Below are positions 3,329 to 60,558 of a stretch of DNA of 64,000 bases, one piece after another. Location: the IMG/VR virus record IMGVR_UViG_3300043429_000130, positions 32,001-96,000 of that record; one strand, given 5' to 3'. This stretch comes from a virus. Under the pieces are notes generated by a model. The model searched no databases. It was not told the DNA's origin and saw only the letters and a list, made by a program, of their open reading frames with translations. The position numbers were made by a program, and so were the translations under genes. Each line of letters begins with the position of its first letter. Within the stretch, counting starts at the first letter, position 1.

Positions 3329-6300
3329 TATCTATGGGACTGTGTTAACTTTTGGTTAGATATTTTAAATAGCATCTTTAGATCTCCACTCTTTGTTTTT
3401 CTTAACCATACTTTGTTTACATTGTGTCTAAACCTCTTACGTTCTAAAGCTGCCTTGGTATAATCAATATACTGAGAATTAATATCATACTGATATCCGT
3501 TAGCCTTAGTATTAAACATAGGTACATTAACAGTACTAAATTCTCCACGATTTTTAGTAATATCCCAGAACTGATTAAATCTATACTTGTTCTCTTCTTT
3601 AGAGAATAAAATTTTTATAGAATTAGTTTGTATCTGAGGATAAGATAAAGCTGCTACAGGATTGTTCTTAGGCTTTAAGTTTAACTCTAGTAATCCAGAT
3701 ATCTGCTCTGAGTTAGAAATAACAGCTTGATCAAAGTTTTCATCTAATACATGAAACTTATCAGCACAATTATTGTGTGTCTTGTATACCTCTAGCAAGT
3801 ATTCAATATTTCTTACAGAGTTAACCTGTTGGCCAGTAGCAGAAATAAACTCCACCTCAAAAGGATAATCTTTACCATAGAAGTTTGCATAAGAGTCACA
3901 ACGTACATTATGCTTCCATATAGAATTTGTATCCACACTCATGAAGTGAGCTTTACCTGGAATGGTAAACGTAGGCTTCCAATCATGGAATGATAACCAT
4001 GTTTGACTCTTAGGATCATAGCTAATAGTCCATGATGCATCTTCAAATGCTAAGGTATTAGTAAGATCATAATATGTCTTAATACCTGAAACTGTTCTAT
4101 AAAATCTACCATCAGCGTCATAAGCCATATCATTAAACAAAGGCTTATAGTCTTTCTTAGTGATATAGATTATCTCATTAGTATTATCATAGGTCATTTG
4201 TACACCTACACCTTTTACAGGGTTATCGTACAAAGGATAGTTAGGATACTTAGCTAGTAGTTCAGAAGGTAGGTATTTAGCAAACCACCATTTCATACCT
4301 TCTCTAGAAATCTCTTTAAGCTGCCCAGCATACTGAAACACCTTACCTTGGTTCTGAGAAACCCAGAATACACCATGAGTACATCCTAGGTTAGCAAACT
4401 TATTCTGACAAGAACCATACTCAAATGATTCATCAGCATTTACTAAAGCTTGAAGTTGTTGAGGACCGCTAAATAATGCTCCATCACCAATAGTAATCTT
4501 AGCACCAGTACCATCTAACTTAAGTTCCTCAACACCCATGAACTGCATAGGACTTTGATAAGCCATCATAAATAACGCACCAGTCTTATTAATAGACTTG
4601 ATTGCTGTTACACGACTACCAAATGTCTTATAGTTGTTAGCTAAGTAAACTCTCCAGTTATCTTTCTTACTCTCATCTTGTTGTGGAAGAGAATAAACAA
4701 CTCTATTAGGATAGTAACTATAACAAGATTCTACTTTCTTAGGATCAAAATCTCTGTCAAGCATGTTGCCCCAAGTGATCTGAGAGTTAAATAACTTAGA
4801 TACACTTAGTGAGTAATCATATTTATAGTAGTTAGGTTCTTTAATAATGTCTGATCTAAACATATTACTTAGATCAGTTAGTCCGTTATAATCATAATGA
4901 CGTTTATCAATACGATCTTCCCAATCTCTGTATGCTACGTTAACCTCAGATTCTACAAAGAAGTCACGTACACCAGAGTTAAATAAATAAAAGTACCCTC
5001 TACTAATATGAAATGCACTAGATACTCTATGATCTAATGATCTAAATTGACTAGCTAGCTTAAATAAACCACCAGATAAATTAGTATTGTTTACCCAAAA
5101 TCTTGGATAAGGCATACTAAAATACATAGTGTAATCTAATTCAGCACCGTTAGGTTCACCATATAACCATGTGTTAAAGAACAACATGCTATTCTTTTCA
5201 GTGAATCTATTTATGTAAACATCACCATTAAAGTAAACATTAGATGTAAACTTACTAGCAGTAGATGTAGATATATCTTCTATACATAAAGAAATAGGTA
5301 GCTGCTTTAAACTATCCAATTGACCATATTGAGATGGTAAAGGAATTTTTAAAGCACCATAGTGTCCAGATATTGGAGTTTGATAAGTAGAGTATAGGTT
5401 AGCATTCTTTTCACTAATTAAATATCTACTTGTATCTTGGACAGTTGGATCACTTATATCAGCATGAGTTTTGATTACTACAAACTTACCACGATTAAAG
5501 TTATTAATCATGTAGTTCTGAGTATCTGCAAAGAATGACTGAACATCAGATCCAACATAACTAGATTCTATTAACTTTCTTCTTCTGTTTCCTTCTGGTG
5601 TAACTTTAGATTTATTATAATAACCATGAGAAACATACTGAGCAGCATATTGTCTATATGGAATAACAGCTAATACTAACTTCATTAGTTGTTCAGAAGT
5701 AACATCTGTCATGATAACAGACATAGCTCCTAATACAAGAATATTAGCTGCTGTAATAGCTGAGTTACCTACAGTTCTTTTTCCTGCTGCTCCAATAGGT
5801 CCTACTTCAGGAACACCTGTTGTGCTAAAATAACCATTGGTTACACCAACAAATGTACCCATAAGTGCTTCAGCTCTATGCGGAGCTAATAAACTTTGAG
5901 TAACGTTTACATCACCATCTGCTTGAAGATTTAATGTAGCATCAGCACCTGCAACTGCTCCAATTACTTTTGAAATCTGAGATACAGCTGCTAATACGTT
6001 TGTTATTAGATCTGTAAAGTTTGTAGGAAGTTTAAACTTAGGATGCTTATATGGAGTTTCAAACCTACCATTAGCTTCACCATAAAGCTCTTGGTATATT
6101 TTTAATTCATTACTATTTAAAAAAGGAGTACTAAATGTTACATCTGGTCCATGAAAAGATAATACATCTTTCTTATATTTTGATAGTTTAGATGATGTAG
6201 GATTAGGTCCACCATTATCACCACGTTGTTCATCAGGAGTTAAATAACTATCTTGTCTTAAGTCATTAAATGGATAGTTCTGGTATAGACCAGTTACGTT

Positions 6301-31600: not shown

Positions 31601-33628
31601 AGCCATACTAAATCTTGTATCTGAATCTAAAGCTGCCCAACTTCTAGCTATTTTAAACTTATCACTATCTGAGTTATCAATACCCATTGACCAACCTTGC
31701 ACACCTCCAATATCAAAAGAAAGTATTGGATCACCTCCAGTTGCAGAACTAGTTCTGATTGCTATAATAGCATTTGACGTAGCAGTTGTTCCTGTATTAT
31801 ATAAATATATAACAGGAACATTGGTACTTGCAGCAGTACTATACGTATCATTTGTATTAGTAATAGTAAAACCTGTATTAGTTGTACTATTTCTTAAAAT
31901 AACACTTTGTAAAGTATCTGTTTCTGTATACCCAGTAATAAATGCAGGAGCTCCAGTAATCTTAGACCAAGCCAAAGCTGTAATCCAAGAAGGATCTGAG
32001 TATGTACTAGTAGTATATACTAAACTATCTGTAATACCATATCCTGCAATAGTAGTAGGTTTTGCAGATACGTTTGCAAAAGAAATACCTGTTATATAAC
32101 CATTAGGGTTTGAAGCTAAGTAGTAAGTTGAGTTATCATAACTCACTGTAGTACCGCTTACCTTTACAAAGCCTGTACCATTAAGTTGAGCTTGTTTTGT
32201 ACCTATACTTGTTGCCACTGTAGTAGCAAAGTTAGGATCGTCTCCAAGAGCAGCCGCTAACTCATTCAATGTATCTAATGTACCAGGAGCAGCATCTACT
32301 AAATTAGAAACAGCTGTGTTTACATAAGATTGAGTAGCATAAGAATTATTTGTAAGGTAGGTTCCTACACGTGCGTCCGTGTAATATAAGTTAGTACCTT
32401 CTACAATGTTTGTAGTTGATGCAGCAACCTTAGTCCATAGACCTGTAGATGCTACATATTTAATCATGTCTCCATCTGATGCATTCTTTACAGAAAGATC
32501 ATGAAGTTCATCTAGCTCAAAACCGTTTTGTACTTTTACAAAAATCTCACCATTATTTTGTTGTACACGTGTAACAACACCAATAAATACTAGGTGAGCT
32601 GGAGCTGTAGGTTTATTTAATAAACCAAAAATAAGATTACCATCTGTTCCTAACCATACAGGATCACCTGCATTTGCACCATTTGTATTTAATCCAGCAA
32701 GTAAACCTTCTGTTACAACAAAACCTTGACCATTTGTTGCTAAATTTTGAGCAACTAGTCCTAGTGTTTTACTAGATGTTTGTTCAGAAGCATTAGATGC
32801 TTTAGAAACAATCATATTAGTACCATCAGCAGATGATACATAAACCGCTTGACCTTTTGTTAAATCAACTCCTGCTTTTACAGTGTGTTGTACAGTACTT
32901 GTAAAATTAGGAATCCATGTAGTATTATAATCAGTACCATCCACCTTAGCTAAGATGTCTCCAGCTATACCACCAGACGGAACTAGCCCTTGGTAGTTAG
33001 GTATATTAAATACTCCTGTAGAAGAATTATAAGTAGCTGCTCCTGATACTCCTGTAGTGGTTAAACTAACTGCGGCTCTTGCACGAGCATTTGTATAATA
33101 TAAGTTTACAACTCCTTCAGGAAGTTGATCTGTAGTGGTTGAAGTTCCTTGATAAACAGGGCTAGCTACAATTACATCTATAATATCCCCAGTTGCCGCA
33201 GCTTCATTTAATGTAAATGTGCTACCGTTAGTAGCTGTACTTTGATTAGGAGATAAGTATACACCATTTAAGAATATATCAATAAGTCCTGGTGCATAAC
33301 CATTTGTTACAGTGAATACGGTTTGTCCTTCTGTAACAACAAATGTTTGTGTAGACTTAAGAGAGCTAGCACTACCACCAGTTACAGATAATACACCACT
33401 TCCTGAATCTATTGACAGACCAGTACCAACTTTAATACCTCCAAGTGTACTTGCAGAGGCAATAGGTAAGCTGTAAGGTTGAACGAAAGTTCTAACCCAT
33501 GCAGTGGTTGCTAACTTAGTAGAATTGTCGTTAGCATCAGGGGTCTGACCAGTAGCAGTATTGTTAAGTGTAACTACACCATCTACTGTCAGACCAGCTT
33601 TAGCTAGTATGTCAGATAGAAATTTCAT
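28694..33628 (-). CDS. Long tail fibre 1 with C-terminal intramolecular chaperone (peptidase S74-like)
   Basis: 1644 aa. GDVTAYSDKRIK...GFIAQDV...DYSKMVALLTEAIKEQQ. Confidence 0.85.
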   Translation of the reverse strand: MKFLSDILAKAGLTVDGVVTLNNTATGQTPDANDNSTKLATTAWVRTFVQPYSLPIASASTLGGIKVGTGLSIDSGSGVLSVTGGSASSLKSTQTFVVTEGQTVFTVTNGYAPGLIDIFLNGVYLSPNQSTATNGSTFTLNEAAATGDIIDVIVASPVYQGTSTTTDQLPEGVVNLYYTNARARAAVSLTTTGVSGAATYNSSTGVFNIPNYQGLVPSGGIAGDILAKVDGTDYNTTWIPNFTSTVQHTVKAGVDLTKGQAVYVSSADGTNMIVSKASNASEQTSSKTLGLVAQNLATNGQGFVVTEGLLAGLNTNGANAGDPVWLGTDGNLIFGLLNKPTAPAHLVFIGVVTRVQQNNGEIFVKVQNGFELDELHDLSVKNASDGDMIKYVASTGLWTKVAASTTNIVEGTNLYYTDARVGTYLTNNSYATQSYVNTAVSNLVDAAPGTLDTLNELAAALGDDPNFATTVATSIGTKQAQLNGTGFVKVSGTTVSYDNSTYYLASNPNGYITGISFANVSAKPTTIAGYGITDSLVYTTSTYSDPSWITALAWSKITGAPAFITGYTETDTLQSVILRNSTTNTGFTITNTNDTYSTAASTNVPVIYLYNTGTTATSNAIIAIRTSSATGGDPILSFDIGGVQGWSMGIDNSDSDKFKIARSWAALDSDTRFSMAVDGTANFTGSLTAANLSGTNTGDQTNISGNAVTVSQRDFSGDISTGGMGRFTGWYTGNAATGLAAEIGTSGGQVYIIAYNRQTSTYGTVNIEGSASTLRITGSTVNVVTGSLQQGGNQVWHAGNFIPSNYLPLSGGTVTGKTNIGTGGSTNGGIFNVTGGTDNQMNISHNSSWGLLLGYCNESSPTGYHGPNHAAIINVQDAPLHLGSNNSSVLRIVSTGASILGNTIIHAGNYNSYALPLSGGTMSGTPVFAAAWSNAGGDYTGITNPAYKVDVASGYWRVVYKGAHSSVSGVYNFESGKNVYWGEPTDTGDYVFRGRSIKWAASNGTEYTVWNSSNLTNLNQLTNGPGYITGYTETDTLATVMSRGSSTASGITFTAPGGSILLKHAVSEVDAWIFQENAANWGLYWKNNPSGNHTFGGYTTVGAELFGMSAANVNGNGVLTSNFVGATSAYAQWMMSNFTGYIWSASTIFAAGDMRAPRFYSSLSSGTMFSHGAMTDAFGYNGSYGTYIGSPVGGTYYIYANGTFFDNGTIRTLIHSGNIGSQSVNYATSAGSASVASRAYYSIDGFTNTGGHGTSYIQNELPAANNGAATGRVVLYQWCSEPGVTWDWAGFGYNVINNGGSPSGFGRFNGNFGQAYMRFSPSGDWFFYNTTTGGTRTSSMTLSSTGAASFGSTISNGSVWINNGGNFNAYNENIRLFNAPNGVSVIAFSASGESGMPTTSILGYSDRMEFRYGNGEQFRIWNGYVTVAGSLTAASSVTGNDVYTSGGWFRNHTNNNGIYWSNTGWHLYPENGSDFYVHSGNSDASIHFIGGGTTRNYIHNSAANEIGFLNTGRNWIFRVDNSGNATASGDVTAYSDKRIKSNITPVKNALEKVLQLTGVYYNRIDIEDKSTKLGFIAQDVKEIVPEVVSVQPDLLAGISDRHSIDYSKMVALLTEAIKEQQTQIESQKSEIEELKDLVKQLINR

Positions 33629-54249: not shown

Positions 54250-54540
54250 ATGGCAGCAACATCATTGCATCTGCTTGCAAAGCAAGCCTTGACCGAAGGT
54301 TCAGAGAACCTTACGTTCAACATTTCTACCGTGGAAACTAAGGCGTTCCCACGTACGAAAAACGTGGCCTTCAGAGCCACGACAGACCAAGGTACTGTCG
54401 TGACCTTCTGGGCCAGTAACATGGACTCTGTGGTAGAGTCCATTGATGACGACGGAAACTTCCGTGTCATCCCCGGCACCCGCAGAGCGGATGACGGCAG
54501 CCTTTGGGATGACTCCCAAAGAAAAGGAATCTGGGATTAA
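54250..54540 (+). CDS. Hypothetical protein, first plus-strand gene (GC-richer than surroundings)
   Basis: 96 aa, followed by an overlapping terminator. Confidence 0.7.
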   Translation: MAATSLHLLAKQALTEGSENLTFNISTVETKAFPRTKNVAFRATTDQGTVVTFWASNMDSVVESIDDDGNFRVIPGTRRADDGSLWDDSQRKGIWD

Positions 54541-54556
54541 CCCAGATTTCTTTTTT
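54526..54556 (+). terminator. Intrinsic terminator
   Basis: GGAATCTGGG-ATTAA-CCCAGATTTC-TTTTTT. Confidence 0.7.
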
Positions 54557-54660
54557 CTGTTCAGTCATACCACAACTCGGTACTACGTCTTATATAGTTT
54601 TTCTGTTAGGATGCAGTACTGAGTTTGTCCTATTTATCCACCATCCTTAACTTATGTCTT

Positions 54661-54813
54661 ATGATTAGATCTAAGAACCTTATGTTTGCTACCTGGGAAG
54701 TATTCCGTAACTGGTATGCATACATGAAACTACGCTTTGTTAACCTAAAGCTTAGACTAGCCAAGCTAGCACCTGGATATACATCCAAAGTTTTTGTTGT
54801 CATTACGTATTAA
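54661..54813 (+). CDS. Small hypothetical protein (about 50 aa)
   Basis: ATG at 54661 (MIRSKNLMFATW...) inside the track ORF. Confidence 0.4.
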   Translation: MIRSKNLMFATWEVFRNWYAYMKLRFVNLKLRLAKLAPGYTSKVFVVITY

Positions 54814-54912
54814 ACAACATTTATACACGTTAACGTATGACACTGTGAGTGGTAGTTAACCTCTACCACTTACTTTTATCCTTTAAATAGCATCTAAACC
54901 ACCCTTTTGGAG

Positions 54913-54930
54913 CGGATAAGATAGCTATAA
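54913..54930 (-). repeat. 18-bp dispersed motif, variant copy TTATAGCTATCTTATCCG
   Basis: Matches the 43718 and 62908 copies except in the centre. Confidence 0.65.
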
Positions 54931-54972
54931 ATACACTAATCCATTCACTCACCCTCTTAATAATTAGATATT

Positions 54973-55191
54973 ATGAAATCTATTATGTTATTAGTTATCT
55001 ACTTTGTCTCATACATATTCTTCTTCCTCTTACTCTCCACTGTAGGTATGTTCTTTACTTCCTATATAGAGACTATTACATCTGACGGCTGGTTCATAGC
55101 TTACAGCATGTTCCTTGGTTGGTGGTTAGCCATCTTCCCAGCCCGTGAGTACTACATCATGAATGAAGAGTATTTTGAAAGAGTATTTTAA
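54973..55191 (+). CDS. Small membrane protein (2 TM)
   Basis: Two hydrophobic segments in 72 aa. Confidence 0.65.
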   Translation: MKSIMLLVIYFVSYIFFFLLLSTVGMFFTSYIETITSDGWFIAYSMFLGWWLAIFPAREYYIMNEEYFERVF

Positions 55192-55195
55192 GACA

Positions 55196-55540
55196 GCTCA
55201 TATTTGACCCCATTAACATAGATATTATATAGTATACTCTATACTGTGTTAAGGAGAGCTCAAATATGAGCCCACTAAAAGTTTTATTCCTATGGAAAAC
55301 ATGAGATTTTTCCCCCTCAAAGTAGTTATGCCAGATGGTCAAGTGTACACACAATCTGTGTATGCTTGTACCAGATGGCATGCTATAGAGAGATTATACT
55401 CTAGAATGTCAGAGTATCAGCCCAATCGTGCTATGTACAAGCTGGCACGCAAGACTAAAAACGCATAGTTTAACGATAGGAGTTTATCTGGTCTACTTCA
55501 TTGATCAGAGGCTTTGTAGGTAGAGGCTCAAAACCTACAT
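55196..55540 (+). ncRNA. Non-coding tract of long imperfect hairpins
   Basis: GCTCATATTTGA/TCAAATATGAGC (55196-55271), TATGCCA..CAAGTGTACAC/GTGTATGCTTG..TGGCATG (55323-55385) and further hairpins. Confidence 0.45.
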
Positions 55541-55564
55541 ATTTTCTATTTCTTATATACGTCC

Positions 55565-55699
55565 ATGAAAAAGCTCCACAAACTCAGCCTAATAGAGACA
55601 GTGTTCTTTATTATAGGTTTATCATTACTTATCACTGGCCTAATAGTATGGTGGTCACGCTTCCTAGAAGTGCACAAATTCCTACTAATGACAGTTTAA
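55565..55699 (+). CDS. Small single-TM peptide (44 aa)
   Basis: MKKLHKLSLIETVFFIIGLSLLITGLIVWWSRFLEVHKFLLMTV; below the track cut-off. Confidence 0.5.
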   Translation: MKKLHKLSLIETVFFIIGLSLLITGLIVWWSRFLEVHKFLLMTV

Positions 55700-55788
55700 C
55701 TTAATATGGATGGTTAGTGAATCCCTGGAGATCATATCAAAGGGGAAACTAACTTCCTAAATCATTTACTAATTCTTAATCTAACTAT

Positions 55789-56160
55789 ATGGTAAAGAAA
55801 TTTTATCAAGAAGAAAACGGACGATGGTACATAGATCTACCAGAGTACATAGAATCAGGAGTTGGCACCAAAGCCAATCTTGAAATGGTGGCAGGTGCAG
55901 ATACATTCTTATCTACACTAGCAAAAGGTGAAAGAACAATCACTATTGAGTTTACAGATGAACACTTTGATGGTCATGATGTACAGCTTATTAGATCATC
56001 AAATTATGGTTATACATCTGAACTAATAGATGAAGCAGAACTTGACGCAGGTGCATGGTATACAGTGAAAGACAACAATCATGATTTATGGTTATGTCCT
56101 GTTGTACTATATCTGTTCAATAACACCTACCCAGAAAACATATTTATTAAAATTCATTAA
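55789..56160 (+). CDS. Hypothetical phage protein (DUF6717-like)
   Basis: WYID...MVAGADTFL...WLCPV pattern recalled from that family. Confidence 0.55.
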   Translation: MVKKFYQEENGRWYIDLPEYIESGVGTKANLEMVAGADTFLSTLAKGERTITIEFTDEHFDGHDVQLIRSSNYGYTSELIDEAELDAGAWYTVKDNNHDLWLCPVVLYLFNNTYPENIFIKIH

Positions 56161-57046: not shown

Positions 57047-57292
57047 GACGGTGAAGCTAGCATGAGCTAGTAGGGCACGCTCATGCTCAAATCTGGAAAA
57101 CAGGACTGATCAACCATGAGCTACTACAGATGATATGGCTGTCGTGAGGGGGGCTTATGAAAAGGACTGCTGCTTTGATTAACTTCATGTTAGTCAGTAT
57201 GTCTCAGTAGTAAATAAAACACTGACACTAACAGCATAGCTGCTTAGCATTAAGGAACACCAACCACAATCAGTACGTTAAGCTGATTATTT
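57047..57292 (+). ncRNA. Structured intergenic RNA (possible switch/pseudoknot plus three-way junction)
   Basis: AGCATGAGC/GCTCATGCT hairpin whose loop TAGTAG complements downstream CTACTA, followed by a TGCTG/CAGCA three-way junction. Confidence 0.45.
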
Positions 57293-58184: not shown

Positions 58185-58766
58185 ATGATACTAAAAAACA
58201 GAGAGTTTGATCACACTCAAGACCATTTTCATGAAGCTATGCAGATTCCTAGTTATATAAGAACTAGATGTCGTGAACGTATATTCTTTTCAGCTTTTTC
58301 TAATGCTTTACAAAGAATAGAACTATTTGAGGATGAAGATGACGCCCCTAAAGAAATGTCTACTGTAACAGGAGACTTGCAACGTACTCTTAGTATGATT
58401 ACTGATGATTTAGAGTACGAATACACATTACTTACTTTCTATGGTCATCAAAAGATGGCTATGGAAGCATTTGGTAGGTATAAGTATTTAAATTCTAAGG
58501 ATCAATCTAAAGAAGATAAGCTTAAACTAAGTATTATCAATCTTATTCAAGAGCTTAAGGATAGAGACGATGATGATGATGACAAGAAAGAAGAAGAGGA
58601 TGAGATTGATAACATCACTGTTAATACTATTATTAAAAGAATATCTATTGTTAAAGACTCACACTATAACTTTGATGTATACTTAAAACAGCTTACTCAA
58701 AAGCTAAGTAGCCGTCCAGATGGTGATTTTAACGTAGATGACTTTCTAAAAAATATCTTTGATTAG
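58185..58766 (+). CDS. Hypothetical acidic protein
   Basis: 193 aa; ends in TAG followed by a terminator. Confidence 0.65.
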   Translation: MILKNREFDHTQDHFHEAMQIPSYIRTRCRERIFFSAFSNALQRIELFEDEDDAPKEMSTVTGDLQRTLSMITDDLEYEYTLLTFYGHQKMAMEAFGRYKYLNSKDQSKEDKLKLSIINLIQELKDRDDDDDDKKEEEDEIDNITVNTIIKRISIVKDSHYNFDVYLKQLTQKLSSRPDGDFNVDDFLKNIFD

Positions 58767-58788
58767 GATTTAGGGTTAGTGAGTAAGG

Positions 58789-58824
58789 TGTAGATGGGAG
58801 TCTTTGACTCCCTCTACATTTTTT
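58789..58824 (+). terminator. Intrinsic terminator
   Basis: TGTAGA-T-GGGAGTC-TTT-GACTCCC-TCTACA-TTTTTT. Confidence 0.7.
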
Positions 58825-58850
58825 ACATATCTAATACAATCACATAGTAC

Positions 58851-59138
58851 ATGAAAAGCATAAATCCACGTTTAATAAAAGGCTTTGGTCAAGTCTCTAA
58901 CGAAGTTATGAGAGACCCAGAACTATCCTTAAAAGACAAAGGCTTGTATGCATATTTATGTACATTTGCTGGTAGTCAAACTAATGAGTTAACTGTTAGT
59001 GTCTACCGTATGGCAGATGAATGTGGTACAAGTCCGTCAACTATAAAGAGAAGTATAGAAACTCTTCAGTCTAAAGGAATAATAGATAGATTGTTTATGG
59101 GTAAAGGAAAGACCCGTAAGACTATCATCTTAAAATAA
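58851..59138 (+). CDS. Helix-turn-helix protein (replication-initiator N-terminal type)
   Basis: V.NEVMRDPELSLKDKGLYAYL...S...MADECGTSPSTIKRSIETLQSKG.I. Confidence 0.75.
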   Translation: MKSINPRLIKGFGQVSNEVMRDPELSLKDKGLYAYLCTFAGSQTNELTVSVYRMADECGTSPSTIKRSIETLQSKGIIDRLFMGKGKTRKTIILK

Positions 59139-59141
59139 CAT

Positions 59142-59832
59142 CCTCCCAGCACTAATATCACATAGGTGGTAGCCTGCGAAACTATGCACCTGTTGGATGC
59201 TAGTGGGAGGGCCCTCTTAAAGGCAAGTGGGACACGTGCACATATATTAGGTGTATATACACGCTAGTATATGATTAAGTCCTGTCCCCACGCCAGTCAT
59301 TGTGCAAGCCTGATCAACAGAGCTAGTAAAGAGCGTACATGGTAGCGAAAGGTTGAGCTGAGTATGGTAAGGAATTTTCTCCTGCACTGTAGAAATACAG
59401 ACTATACTAAGTGCTCCCCAAGTGACGTATTCTTGCTGAAATGCACTATCCTGTGATAGTCTTGCACAAACCCATTAAGAGTTATGTGATAATATCATAT
59501 GCAAGCAGCATCCTGCTAAGGTGTGTTTAGCTGTACGGTGTTATGCATAACTCTTGTAACGCATTAGCTGATTATAGCAGCCTCAAGTGAGTCTAAAGCC
59601 CTCGGCCAGCATTGAACTGTTATAGTAGCTATTTATTAAAAGGTCTGATCTCAGGAGCTAAGTAGCGTATTAAATATAATTACCTAGGACAAGTATCCGC
59701 AAACAGTTCGTGTATAGTTAGTAGTACGACATGATGATAGAGCTCCGTCAAACGAACAGTATATCAACTTAGTAGCCTGATCAGGACAATGGTAGATCCG
59801 TAAGAACTATGGAACCCTGAGATAGACCTTTT
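59142..59832 (+). ncRNA. About 690-nt structured non-coding region of six consecutive stem-closed domains
   Basis: No ORF in the track. Six long-range inverted repeats close successive domains, with G-U pairs and GAAA loops on the + strand. Confidence 0.6.
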
Positions 59833-59846
59833 TAAATTTTAATATT

Positions 59847-60278
59847 ATGACTATAGAAGAACTAATTAACAAGTATCCTAAAATATTTGAAGACTATGAG
59901 GGTAATCCAGGTAGAGTAAACTGGTATGGCTTACCTAAAGGTTGGATATCTATAATAGATAAACTTTGCGGATGTATGCAAAGCTATATAGATAATCATG
60001 TTACTTATTCAAAAGATGGTGAATATAGACCACAACAAGTGACTTGTTCTCAAATGAAAGAGAAGTTTGGTGGTCTACGCTTTTATACAAATGGTCATGA
60101 TAATGTCATAGAAGGTATGATTAGCATGGCAGAATACATTTGTGACAATACCTGTCAGCAATGTAGGTCAGAACAAGATCTTGGTGTTACATCAGGTTGG
60201 ATAACTGTATTATGCAGAACCTGTGTAATAGAACATGGTGATAGAGCAATGAATGCTTGGACACCTCTAACTAAATAA
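59847..60278 (+). CDS. Conserved phage protein with KEKFGGLRFY motif and Zn ribbon
   Basis: GW..II..L...Q.KEKFGGLRFY...TCQQC...GWITVLC..C. Confidence 0.7.
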   Translation: MTIEELINKYPKIFEDYEGNPGRVNWYGLPKGWISIIDKLCGCMQSYIDNHVTYSKDGEYRPQQVTCSQMKEKFGGLRFYTNGHDNVIEGMISMAEYICDNTCQQCRSEQDLGVTSGWITVLCRTCVIEHGDRAMNAWTPLTK

Positions 60279-60279
60279 A

Positions 60280-60558
60280 ATGGCAGACAAACAATTATTG
60301 TTATTATGCAGCTGTTATAGTTGTGAACATCAAATGATAATACATTTAGATGAAGGTGGAGATTTATACCCTCCAGAAGCATATGTACATGTACATTTAA
60401 TTAGACGGTCCTTTTGGTACCGTGTGAAGTATGGTATAAAATATATATTTGGATTTAAATCTAGATACGGTGCATGGGATGAATTTATATTAGATAAAAC
60501 TCATGCAGACTCACTTAGAGAAATAGCTAAACACTTAGATGATGAAACAGTATACTAA
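60280..60558 (+). CDS. Hypothetical protein
   Basis: CSC.SCEH motif; operon-coupled. Confidence 0.6.
   Translation: MADKQLLLLCSCYSCEHQMIIHLDEGGDLYPPEAYVHVHLIRRSFWYRVKYGIKYIFGFKSRYGAWDEFILDKTHADSLREIAKHLDDETVY

Follow-up and report, generated by a model that had tools for sequence, protein, structure and literature searches.

The stretch of DNA analyzed here (the window) comprises 64,000 nucleotides (nt), namely positions 32,001 to 96,000 of the IMG/VR virus record IMGVR_UViG_3300043429_000130. This record of 119,642 base pairs (bp) stems from a freshwater crAss-like phage. Its large terminase matches crAss-like phages only (Bacteroides, Flavobacterium and uncultured ones, at about 25% identity), and the DNA runs that contain the tract described below are labelled as freshwater or lake metagenomes. 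The tract in question covers 708 bases (window positions 59139-59846) between a gene for a helix-turn-helix (HTH) protein of 95 amino acids (aa; 58851-59138) and a gene for a protein of 143 aa (59847-60278), both on the + strand. It consists of six non-coding RNA modules, denoted D1 to D6 in 5′ to 3′ order, each of which folds on its own and belongs to no catalogued family. The tract folds with + strand polarity, its stems are conserved through compensatory changes, its content is modular among related phages, and the segments D2-D3 and D5-D6 are present in contigs from RNA libraries.

The initial annotation of this DNA described the tract as free of open reading frames (ORFs) and as an array of six stem-closed domains, which is confirmed here, and took it for RNA rather than DNA structure. 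Concerning coding content, no ORF of more than 46 aa is found in 59139-59846, and the longest ones overlapping this range have 30-46 aa. A recoded or interrupted protein gene was rejected, as every + frame contains all three stop codons (17, 24 and 18 stops in the three frames); because TAA, TAG and TGA all occur in each of them, reassignment of a stop codon opens no frame. The G+C content is 0.40-0.45 across the tract, as compared to about 0.30-0.36 in its flanks.

Structure of the core and accessory domains

All six closing stems quoted in the initial annotation are recovered in minimum-free-energy (MFE) folds of the single domains, with + strand z-scores between -2.2 and -4.8 (D1 -2.56, D2 -3.06, D3 -2.38, D4 -4.82, D5 -2.20, D6 -2.75). 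Spacers of 5-11 nt separate neighbouring domains. Compared with shuffled controls, the tract as a whole folds better on the + strand only: the z-score is -3.0 for the + strand, with 0 of 20 shuffles as good, and -0.43 for the - strand, with 6 of 20 shuffles as good. In single domains the - strand is not uniformly worse (D1 -2.18, D2 -3.13, D4 -2.43, D5 +0.58). The assignment to RNA is supported by the + strand-only folding of the whole tract and by G-U pairs in the closing stem of D6 (see below). A word which had been noticed in both D3 and D6, GCCTGATCA, indeed has precisely two copies in the window (59308 and 59775); 0.28 copies are expected, and 2 of 100 shuffles reach two.

D5 (59565-59631, + strand) is a hairpin in which CUGA (59568-59571) stands opposite UAG (59626-59628), leaving a bulged G. 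In an alignment of 20 distinct sequences, 91.6% of the cells of its 19 pairs are paired, and 12 pairs have changed on both sides; the observed values were reached in 0 of 500 shuffles. D6 (59638-59832, + strand) is a multibranched RNA with a 17-bp closing stem, which encloses about 160 nt in the window and again contains a bulged G (CUGA at 59645-59648 opposite UAG at 59823-59825). Across 23 distinct sequences, 97.2% of the cells of this stem are paired; in four pairs both sides have changed, 23 cells are G-U, and non-standard cells are confined to the two outermost pairs. Neither the pairing nor the covariation observed is attained by any of 500 shuffles, and pairing falls to 18-55% in slid controls.

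Near the base of both closing stems, D5 and D6 hence share one bulged-G step, 5′-CU(G)A-3′ opposite 5′-UAG-3′. This step is invariant: the C, U, G and A columns and the opposing U, A and G columns do not change in the D5 alignment, and the matching pairs of D6 never vary. A looser version of the step is present in D3.

The length of D6 varies from 158 to 230 nt among relatives. Its interior is the variable part, in which whole arms are swapped between subtypes; the words GUCUGAU, GAGC, two AGUA words and GAUAGAC are conserved. Alignment and consensus folding of the 23 sequences and of three subtypes (MAFFT and RNAalifold), together with a scan for helix runs, yielded, besides the closing stem, no more than a weakly supported 3′ hairpin and subtype-specific hairpins. 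A covariance model of D6 (R1) scores 185 bits at D6 of the window and 71-190 bits in 15 complete copies from relatives, and it detects a single copy in the genome of 119,642 bp. At the 3′ border of D6, a T run (59829-59833, + strand) is partly paired with a 5′ A run and may represent a 3′-end signal; a simple scan did not call it a terminator, and the same scan found no intrinsic terminator (compact G+C-rich hairpin with a loop of 3-8, then a T run) inside 59139-59846.

By eye, the short D6 subtype appears to contain a covarying hairpin and the long subtype a possible long-range helix. D6 of the window also contains an internal near-repeat, AGGACAAGUA (59686-59695) and AGGACAAUGGUA (59784-59795), each following an AGUAGC word, which hints at a two-fold internal symmetry of the RNA.

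The remaining domains, likewise on the + strand, differ in size and conservation. D1 (59142-59210) is a hairpin of 69 nt (MFE -26.6) that contains a bulged G and an AC/UG internal loop, the latter being conserved; 9 of its 25 predicted pairs display compensatory change (5 sequences). For D2 (59222-59294), a hairpin of 73 nt, this applies to 5 of 26 pairs (7 sequences). D3 (59300-59469) is a multibranched domain of 170 nt with a variable insert and compensatory change in 12 of 57 pairs (4 sequences), the closing stem of which contains a D6-like CUGAUC...GAGCUA...GAUAG core. D4 (59477-59555) is a long hairpin of 79 nt, for which 0 of 200 shuffles folded as well as the natural sequence.

Modular content in related phages and RNA libraries

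Relatives were collected by protein-guided searches of IMG/VR, which yielded 24 loci, and by scanning IMG/VR and metagenomes with a 16-mer taken from the D6 stem. The latter returned 26 stretches from IMG/VR (13 with a matching 3′ arm) and 74 from metagenomes; among these 100 loci, 31 have a matching 3′ arm (20 distinct sequences), and 69 are chance matches. The 25 loci holding both arms of the D6 stem were analyzed, and modules were mapped by blastn of single domains.

D6 is present in all 25 of these loci. In 24 of them it lies downstream of a homologue of the 95-aa protein, and in the 25th the contig ends 12 bases before D6. The HTH homologues are 45-97% identical across loci, and the D6 stem stays near-invariant while HTH identity drops to 45%. 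D5 is often too diverged for blastn, and its presence was scored from the upstream stretches: it is located directly upstream of D6 in 20 of 21 distinct stretches, the remaining one (locus L088) having a D1-type hairpin instead. D5 and D6 thus constitute a core of about 270 nt downstream of the HTH gene.

By comparison, blastn detects D1 in 5 of the 25 loci (the window, L007, L062, L097, and L088 via its own copy) and D2 in 8; D3 is found in 4 loci, and D4 in the window and L007 only. Downstream of the HTH gene, the window and L007 carry D1-D2-D3-D4-D5-D6. An additional element, E7 (see below), closes the order in several relatives: D2-D3-D5-D6-E7 in L009, the same with a different hairpin in the place of D4 in L011 (D2-D3-hairpin-D5-D6-E7), D5-D6-E7 in L008 and L037, and transfer RNA (tRNA)-D5-D6-E7 in L034, L046 and L052; L105, the contig of which is cut just before D6, is grouped with these. 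Shorter orders are D2-D5-D6 (L044, L048, L069), D1-D5-D6 (L062, L097), a D1-type hairpin followed by D6 (L088), and D5-D6 alone (L039, L040, L043, L083). Even close relatives with a 90-97% identical HTH gene lack D1, D1-D4 or D3-D4 entirely, and others insert a tRNA. D1-D4 are accessory modules that are gained, lost or swapped by lineages.

Genuine RNA genes occupy the same island in relatives. The tRNA of the order given above was demonstrated in L013 (3293-3365) and L014 (3292-3364), which are the same contigs as L034 and L046; it directly follows the HTH stop codon ahead of D5 and is recognized by Rfam models (38-39 bits), being missed by ARAGORN. Complete transfer-messenger RNA (tmRNA) genes of 69-84 bits lie within or near the island in six relatives, according to Rfam models (L018:3704-4177, L015:4204-4717, L097:11184-11655, L062:719-1268 on the - strand, L048:3359-3784 on the - strand, and L088:8350-9020); ARAGORN detects the one in L048 only.

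E7 is a conserved ORF-free element of about 260 nt (L008:3564-3823), which also follows D6 in L009, L011, L012, L013 and L014, and the 3′ end of which is a strong terminator hairpin. It has no Rfam match and was not found in the genome of the window's phage. By eye, E7 shares a string beginning with CGUGUAGCAGAA with the tag-coding region of the tmRNAs of relatives; judging by this likeness, E7 might be derived from tmRNA.

Outside this group of phages, a scan of bacterial and archaeal genomes with the 16-mer found the 3′ arm in 0 of at least 120 stretches among the matches listed, and model R1 found no copy in 154 sampled Bacteroidota genomes (3, plus 151 of their class). Among 50,697 deposited phage records of INPHARED there is no DNA match to the tract; the HTH protein has one weak protein match there.

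In six RNA-library runs, a minor fraction of the words of 58800-60300 is found. Contigs of four of these runs, each from a different study, were examined; three of these studies date from 2025 and may be one campaign. One contig (59199-59467; 269 nt, 1 difference) covers D2-D3 and bridges the boundary between the two domains. Three further contigs (59577-59821, 245 nt, 0 differences; 59576-59815, 240 nt, 0 differences; 59596-59817, 222 nt, 1 difference) cover D5-D6 and bridge that boundary, and other pieces derive from D6 of relatives. The RNA-library contigs thereby fall into two separate pieces. In the four runs no contig lies on the HTH gene (58851-59138) or on the gene for the 143-aa protein (range 59871-60300), and a part left uncovered counts as no evidence. 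The contigs of two studies start at 59576 and 59577 without a loose end; these starts may, at best, faintly point to the 5′ end of an RNA within D5, or else reflect an assembly break between co-occurring strains. The 3′ ends of the D5-D6 contigs (59815-59821) are not interpretable either.

Comparison with known RNA families

The initial annotation did not recognize the tract as GOLLD or ROOL, and a search with Rfam 15 leads to the same outcome. With 4227 models, including GOLLD, ROOL, HEARO, group I and group II introns, 6S, RNase P and Y RNA, there are 0 matches at gathering score in the window. At E≤10, the range 58700-60000 displays four chance-level matches (15.6-21.3 bits, as compared to cut-offs of 56-80), one of which overlaps the tract (D2, - strand); none is to GOLLD, ROOL, introns or Y RNA. 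In 15 + 8 related loci, tmRNA and tRNA alone reach the threshold, with nothing over D1-D6 or E7. The tmRNA and tRNA genes of the same phage clade occupy the same island as D1-D6, but D1-D6 match neither model, and neither ARAGORN nor Rfam detects tRNA or tmRNA features in them. D6 is not a piece of a tmRNA, because it coexists with a complete tmRNA in six relatives.

GOLLD and ROOL are large, ornate, often phage-borne RNAs of phages and bacteria, sometimes located beside tRNA genes. In contrast to these, the tract is modular rather than one fold, and it has no Rfam match to either at any threshold tried.

A likeness in architecture is offered by the Y RNAs, which associate with Ro60/Rsr and comprise vertebrate forms as well as the bacterial and phage YrlA/YrlB. 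Like D6, Y RNAs have 5′ and 3′ ends that pair into a long stem around an interior that varies; this stem has a conserved bulged helix close to the termini and a U run at its end, and several different copies are possible per genome (PMC4201824). The Ro60/Rsr-binding motif near the 5′ end is given as GGUCCGA for vertebrates and as GNCGAAN0-1G for bacteria (PMC4201824). GGUCUGA of D6 and the vertebrate motif share 6 of 7 letters, the bulge of D6 lying one base farther along; the bacterial motif is not fitted by D6, and D5 keeps CU(G)A only, not GGUC. In size, the 80-130 nt stated for Y RNAs (PMC4201824) compare with 158-230 nt for D6. In addition, the tRNA-like T and D arms of Y RNA/YrlA are found in D6 neither by ARAGORN nor by Rfam, and no Y RNA model of Rfam matches the tract. 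No gene for a TROVE (Ro60/Rsr) protein was detected in the phage record of 119,642 bp; the controls gave matches in 2 of 14 genomes.

The nearest parallels in the literature come from the phages phi14:2 and T4. The crAss-like Cellulophaga phage phi14:2 is reported to produce two abundant early intergenic RNAs of unexplained function, which arise from long ORF-free gaps of the early rightward-read region and exceed most mRNAs in abundance (bioRxiv 10.1101/2020.03.07.982082). The likeness to the present locus consists in a crAss-like phage of an aquatic Bacteroidota host with early intergenic RNAs. No homology is shown, since neither the D6 model R1 (the only tract model applied there) nor any Rfam family at gathering score matches the first 12 kb of that genome (KC821624, 1-12000). 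The gaps 1760-1870 and 4090-4600 of KC821624 (L125) contain T-arm-like words (GGTTCGAATCC) and may be the abundant non-coding RNAs of phi14:2.

Placement amid tRNA or tmRNA genes, as seen in the relatives of the window's phage, also has a precedent in phage T4. The species I and II RNAs of T4 are without an explained function. They are stable non-tRNA phage RNAs amid tRNA genes and are cut from a polycistronic precursor of about 1.75 kb which they share with the T4 tRNAs (PMC2330249). In T4, the host polymerase reads from a middle promoter (PMC2330249). The phage of the window has no tRNA at all; the T4-like placement is true of the relatives, not of this phage.

Interpretation and alternative explanations

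With modest confidence, we favor the explanation that the tract is an array of stable RNA genes, with D5-D6 as the core and D1-D4 as accessory modules, and that the core probably docks a protein on its bulged-G stems. The modules probably arise by cleavage of a longer early transcript, because the tract lacks a host-type promoter word and AU-rich spacers lie between the modules; the absence of this word (TAnnTTTG) inside the tract says little by itself, since it is under-represented throughout the window (64 occurrences, with 77 expected). Once released, the modules would accumulate as stable RNAs. The CU(G)A/UAG step in the stems of D5 and D6 may be the docking or cutting site of one protein, of host or phage origin, and D5-D6 would then form a ribonucleoprotein that acts in trans, its adaptable part being the variable interior of D6.

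Several observations weigh against this explanation. Across the 23 D6 sequences, the closing stem alone holds, save for a weakly supported hairpin on the 3′ side (84.5% paired). Nor does the rest of the genome show an enrichment of the bulged-G step, which has 9 matches as compared to 3.5 ± 1.9 in block shuffles; D5 and D6 alone are convincing, and the other 7 look like chance. The RNA-library contigs document presence only, not strand, ends or abundance, and carry-over of DNA in RNA libraries is possible. Finally, ARAGORN detects neither tRNA nor tmRNA genes in the window and in the whole phage genome, and the RNA-gene context is therefore borrowed from relatives.

A more specific version, which we regard as unlikely, would see D5-D6 as a phage-made, Y-RNA-like scaffold or decoy, the two bulged-G helices of which capture a host RNA-handling protein (for example a Ro60/Rsr-type ring or a ribonuclease). 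The rapidly changing D6 interior would then retarget or block this protein during takeover, and the accessory hairpins D1, D2 and D4 would belong to the same set of decoys. In this view, the tRNA and tmRNA genes that relatives carry in the island suggest a toolkit that may shield phage RNA and translation from host attack.

As an alternative to RNA genes, the hairpins may be cis-acting parts of an early mRNA, such as RNase III-type processing sites, 3′-end protectors or attenuators, which shape the expression of the HTH gene and the downstream genes and leave stable pieces as by-products. This is rather unlikely in our judgement. It would agree with the position inside a + strand operon after a terminator-like hairpin, with the missing host-type -7 promoter word, with the long imperfect stems and the T run at the end of D6, and with the fact that other intergenic gaps of the early region are rich in hairpins, too. 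However, D6 and D3 are elaborate and multibranched, with conserved junction sequences, and the stem sequence of D6 is frozen where the neighbouring protein is down to 45% identity. The genes located 3′ of D6, moreover, differ among relatives (92, 143, 163, 189 or 244 aa, or further RNA genes), and the modules of relatives sit among true RNA genes for tRNA and tmRNA.

It is quite improbable that D1-D3 and D4-D6 are two copies of a three-part unit that arose by tandem duplication. Both halves do have the same order (hairpin, hairpin, multibranched domain), and they share words: TAATATCA in D1 and D4, CAAGTG in D2 and D5, and AGCCTGATCA in D3 and D6. D3 is also the best match of the D6 model besides D6 itself, yet with filters off this match is marginal (11.7 bits, E 0.022 over 5.1 kb, the E-value being roughly calibrated). 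D1 and D2 are found without D3 in other relatives. As plain sequence comparison by local alignment is no better than shuffles (z-scores of 1.97 for D1/D4, -0.31 for D2/D5, 1.33 for D3/D6 and 0.5 for unit 1 against unit 2), we do not claim such a duplication.

The initial annotation had left the choice between one large non-coding RNA and a polycistronic cassette of small RNAs. The cassette fits the data; the single RNA does not, as modules are gained and lost separately and the contigs fall into two pieces. One multi-domain RNA of about 700 nt, of the size class of GOLLD and ROOL and forming a single folded particle, appears very improbable. The domains do abut with short spacers, the whole tract folds better than shuffles, and RNA-library contigs bridge neighbouring domains. 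Yet the fold contains no long-range helix between domains, save a single weak pairing of the tract's outermost ends, and the models of GOLLD and ROOL remain unmatched. That relatives carry different subsets of domains, with tRNA and tmRNA genes in the same island, argues against the single RNA and for an array.

That the tract is or holds a replication origin for the initiator-like HTH protein, with DNA hairpins or primer RNA as its structures, is hardly credible: origins often lie next to their initiator gene, and phage replication initiators as well as DnaD-like loaders carry HTH_36 as their N-terminal module for DNA binding, but iterons and an AT-rich unwinding element are absent, no other part of the region is as rich in G+C as the tract, its - strand folds no better than chance, and pairing kept via G-U pairs, which are A-C mismatches on the other strand, is of RNA type and specific for one strand.

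Of all known viruses, crAss-like phages rank with the most abundant. The locus described here provides concrete objects for the question of what role is played by the abundant early non-coding RNAs of phi14:2, the one well-studied aquatic member of this group. At least four uncatalogued structured RNA families (the D1, D2, D5 and D6 types) have folds backed by compensatory changes, and the core pair is kept across phages in spite of a neighbouring protein diverged to 45% identity. The invariant bulged-G helix shared by D5 and D6 can directly be used as bait for a protein partner. If this partner were a host RNA-quality-control or defence protein, the core may represent an RNA-based device for takeover or counter-defence; if not, the RNAs are still new families for the catalogue of phage RNAs.

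The 95-aa protein encoded directly upstream of the array (58851-59138, + strand) is a stand-alone HTH_36 protein (Pfam, E 2.9e-10) similar to the DNA-binding domain with which phage replication initiators and DnaD-like loaders begin. Matches to PHROG families of replication initiators are restricted to the N-terminal ~100 positions of these families, and in the distant relative L023 the HTH domain heads a Phg_2220_C protein of 343 aa, followed by DnaB. A replication gene split by an intron was considered and rejected, given that no intron model matches and that the short HTH form is kept in all 24 relatives. The earlier suggestion that the array acts together with this protein finds no support beyond the conserved gene order, and this linkage weighs little because the whole neighbourhood is syntenic in all relatives.

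Upstream of the HTH gene, a terminator-like hairpin with a T run (58796-58822, + strand; 7-bp stem with 5 G-C pairs) closes a gene for a 193-aa protein and marks the start of the unit comprising the HTH gene and the RNA array. The 143-aa protein encoded downstream (59847-60278, + strand) is rich in cysteine, including several CxxC pairs, and matches neither Pfam nor PHROG families; it is found in some relatives only and is no fixed neighbour of D6.

Two further gaps of the window contain hairpins. The ORF-free gap 57047-57292 (250 nt) holds ACUGAUCAACCAUGAGCUA, which is near to CCUGAUCAACAGAGCUA of D3. By eye, CUGAUCAAC...GAGCUA is common to this gap and D3, and the gap was tried as a related RNA; it was rejected, as model R1 with filters off scores at most 2 bits there. 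The divergent region between the virion genes on the - strand and the early genes on the + strand (54540-55790) comprises about 1.2 kb without an ORF of at least 80 aa and displays several long hairpins.

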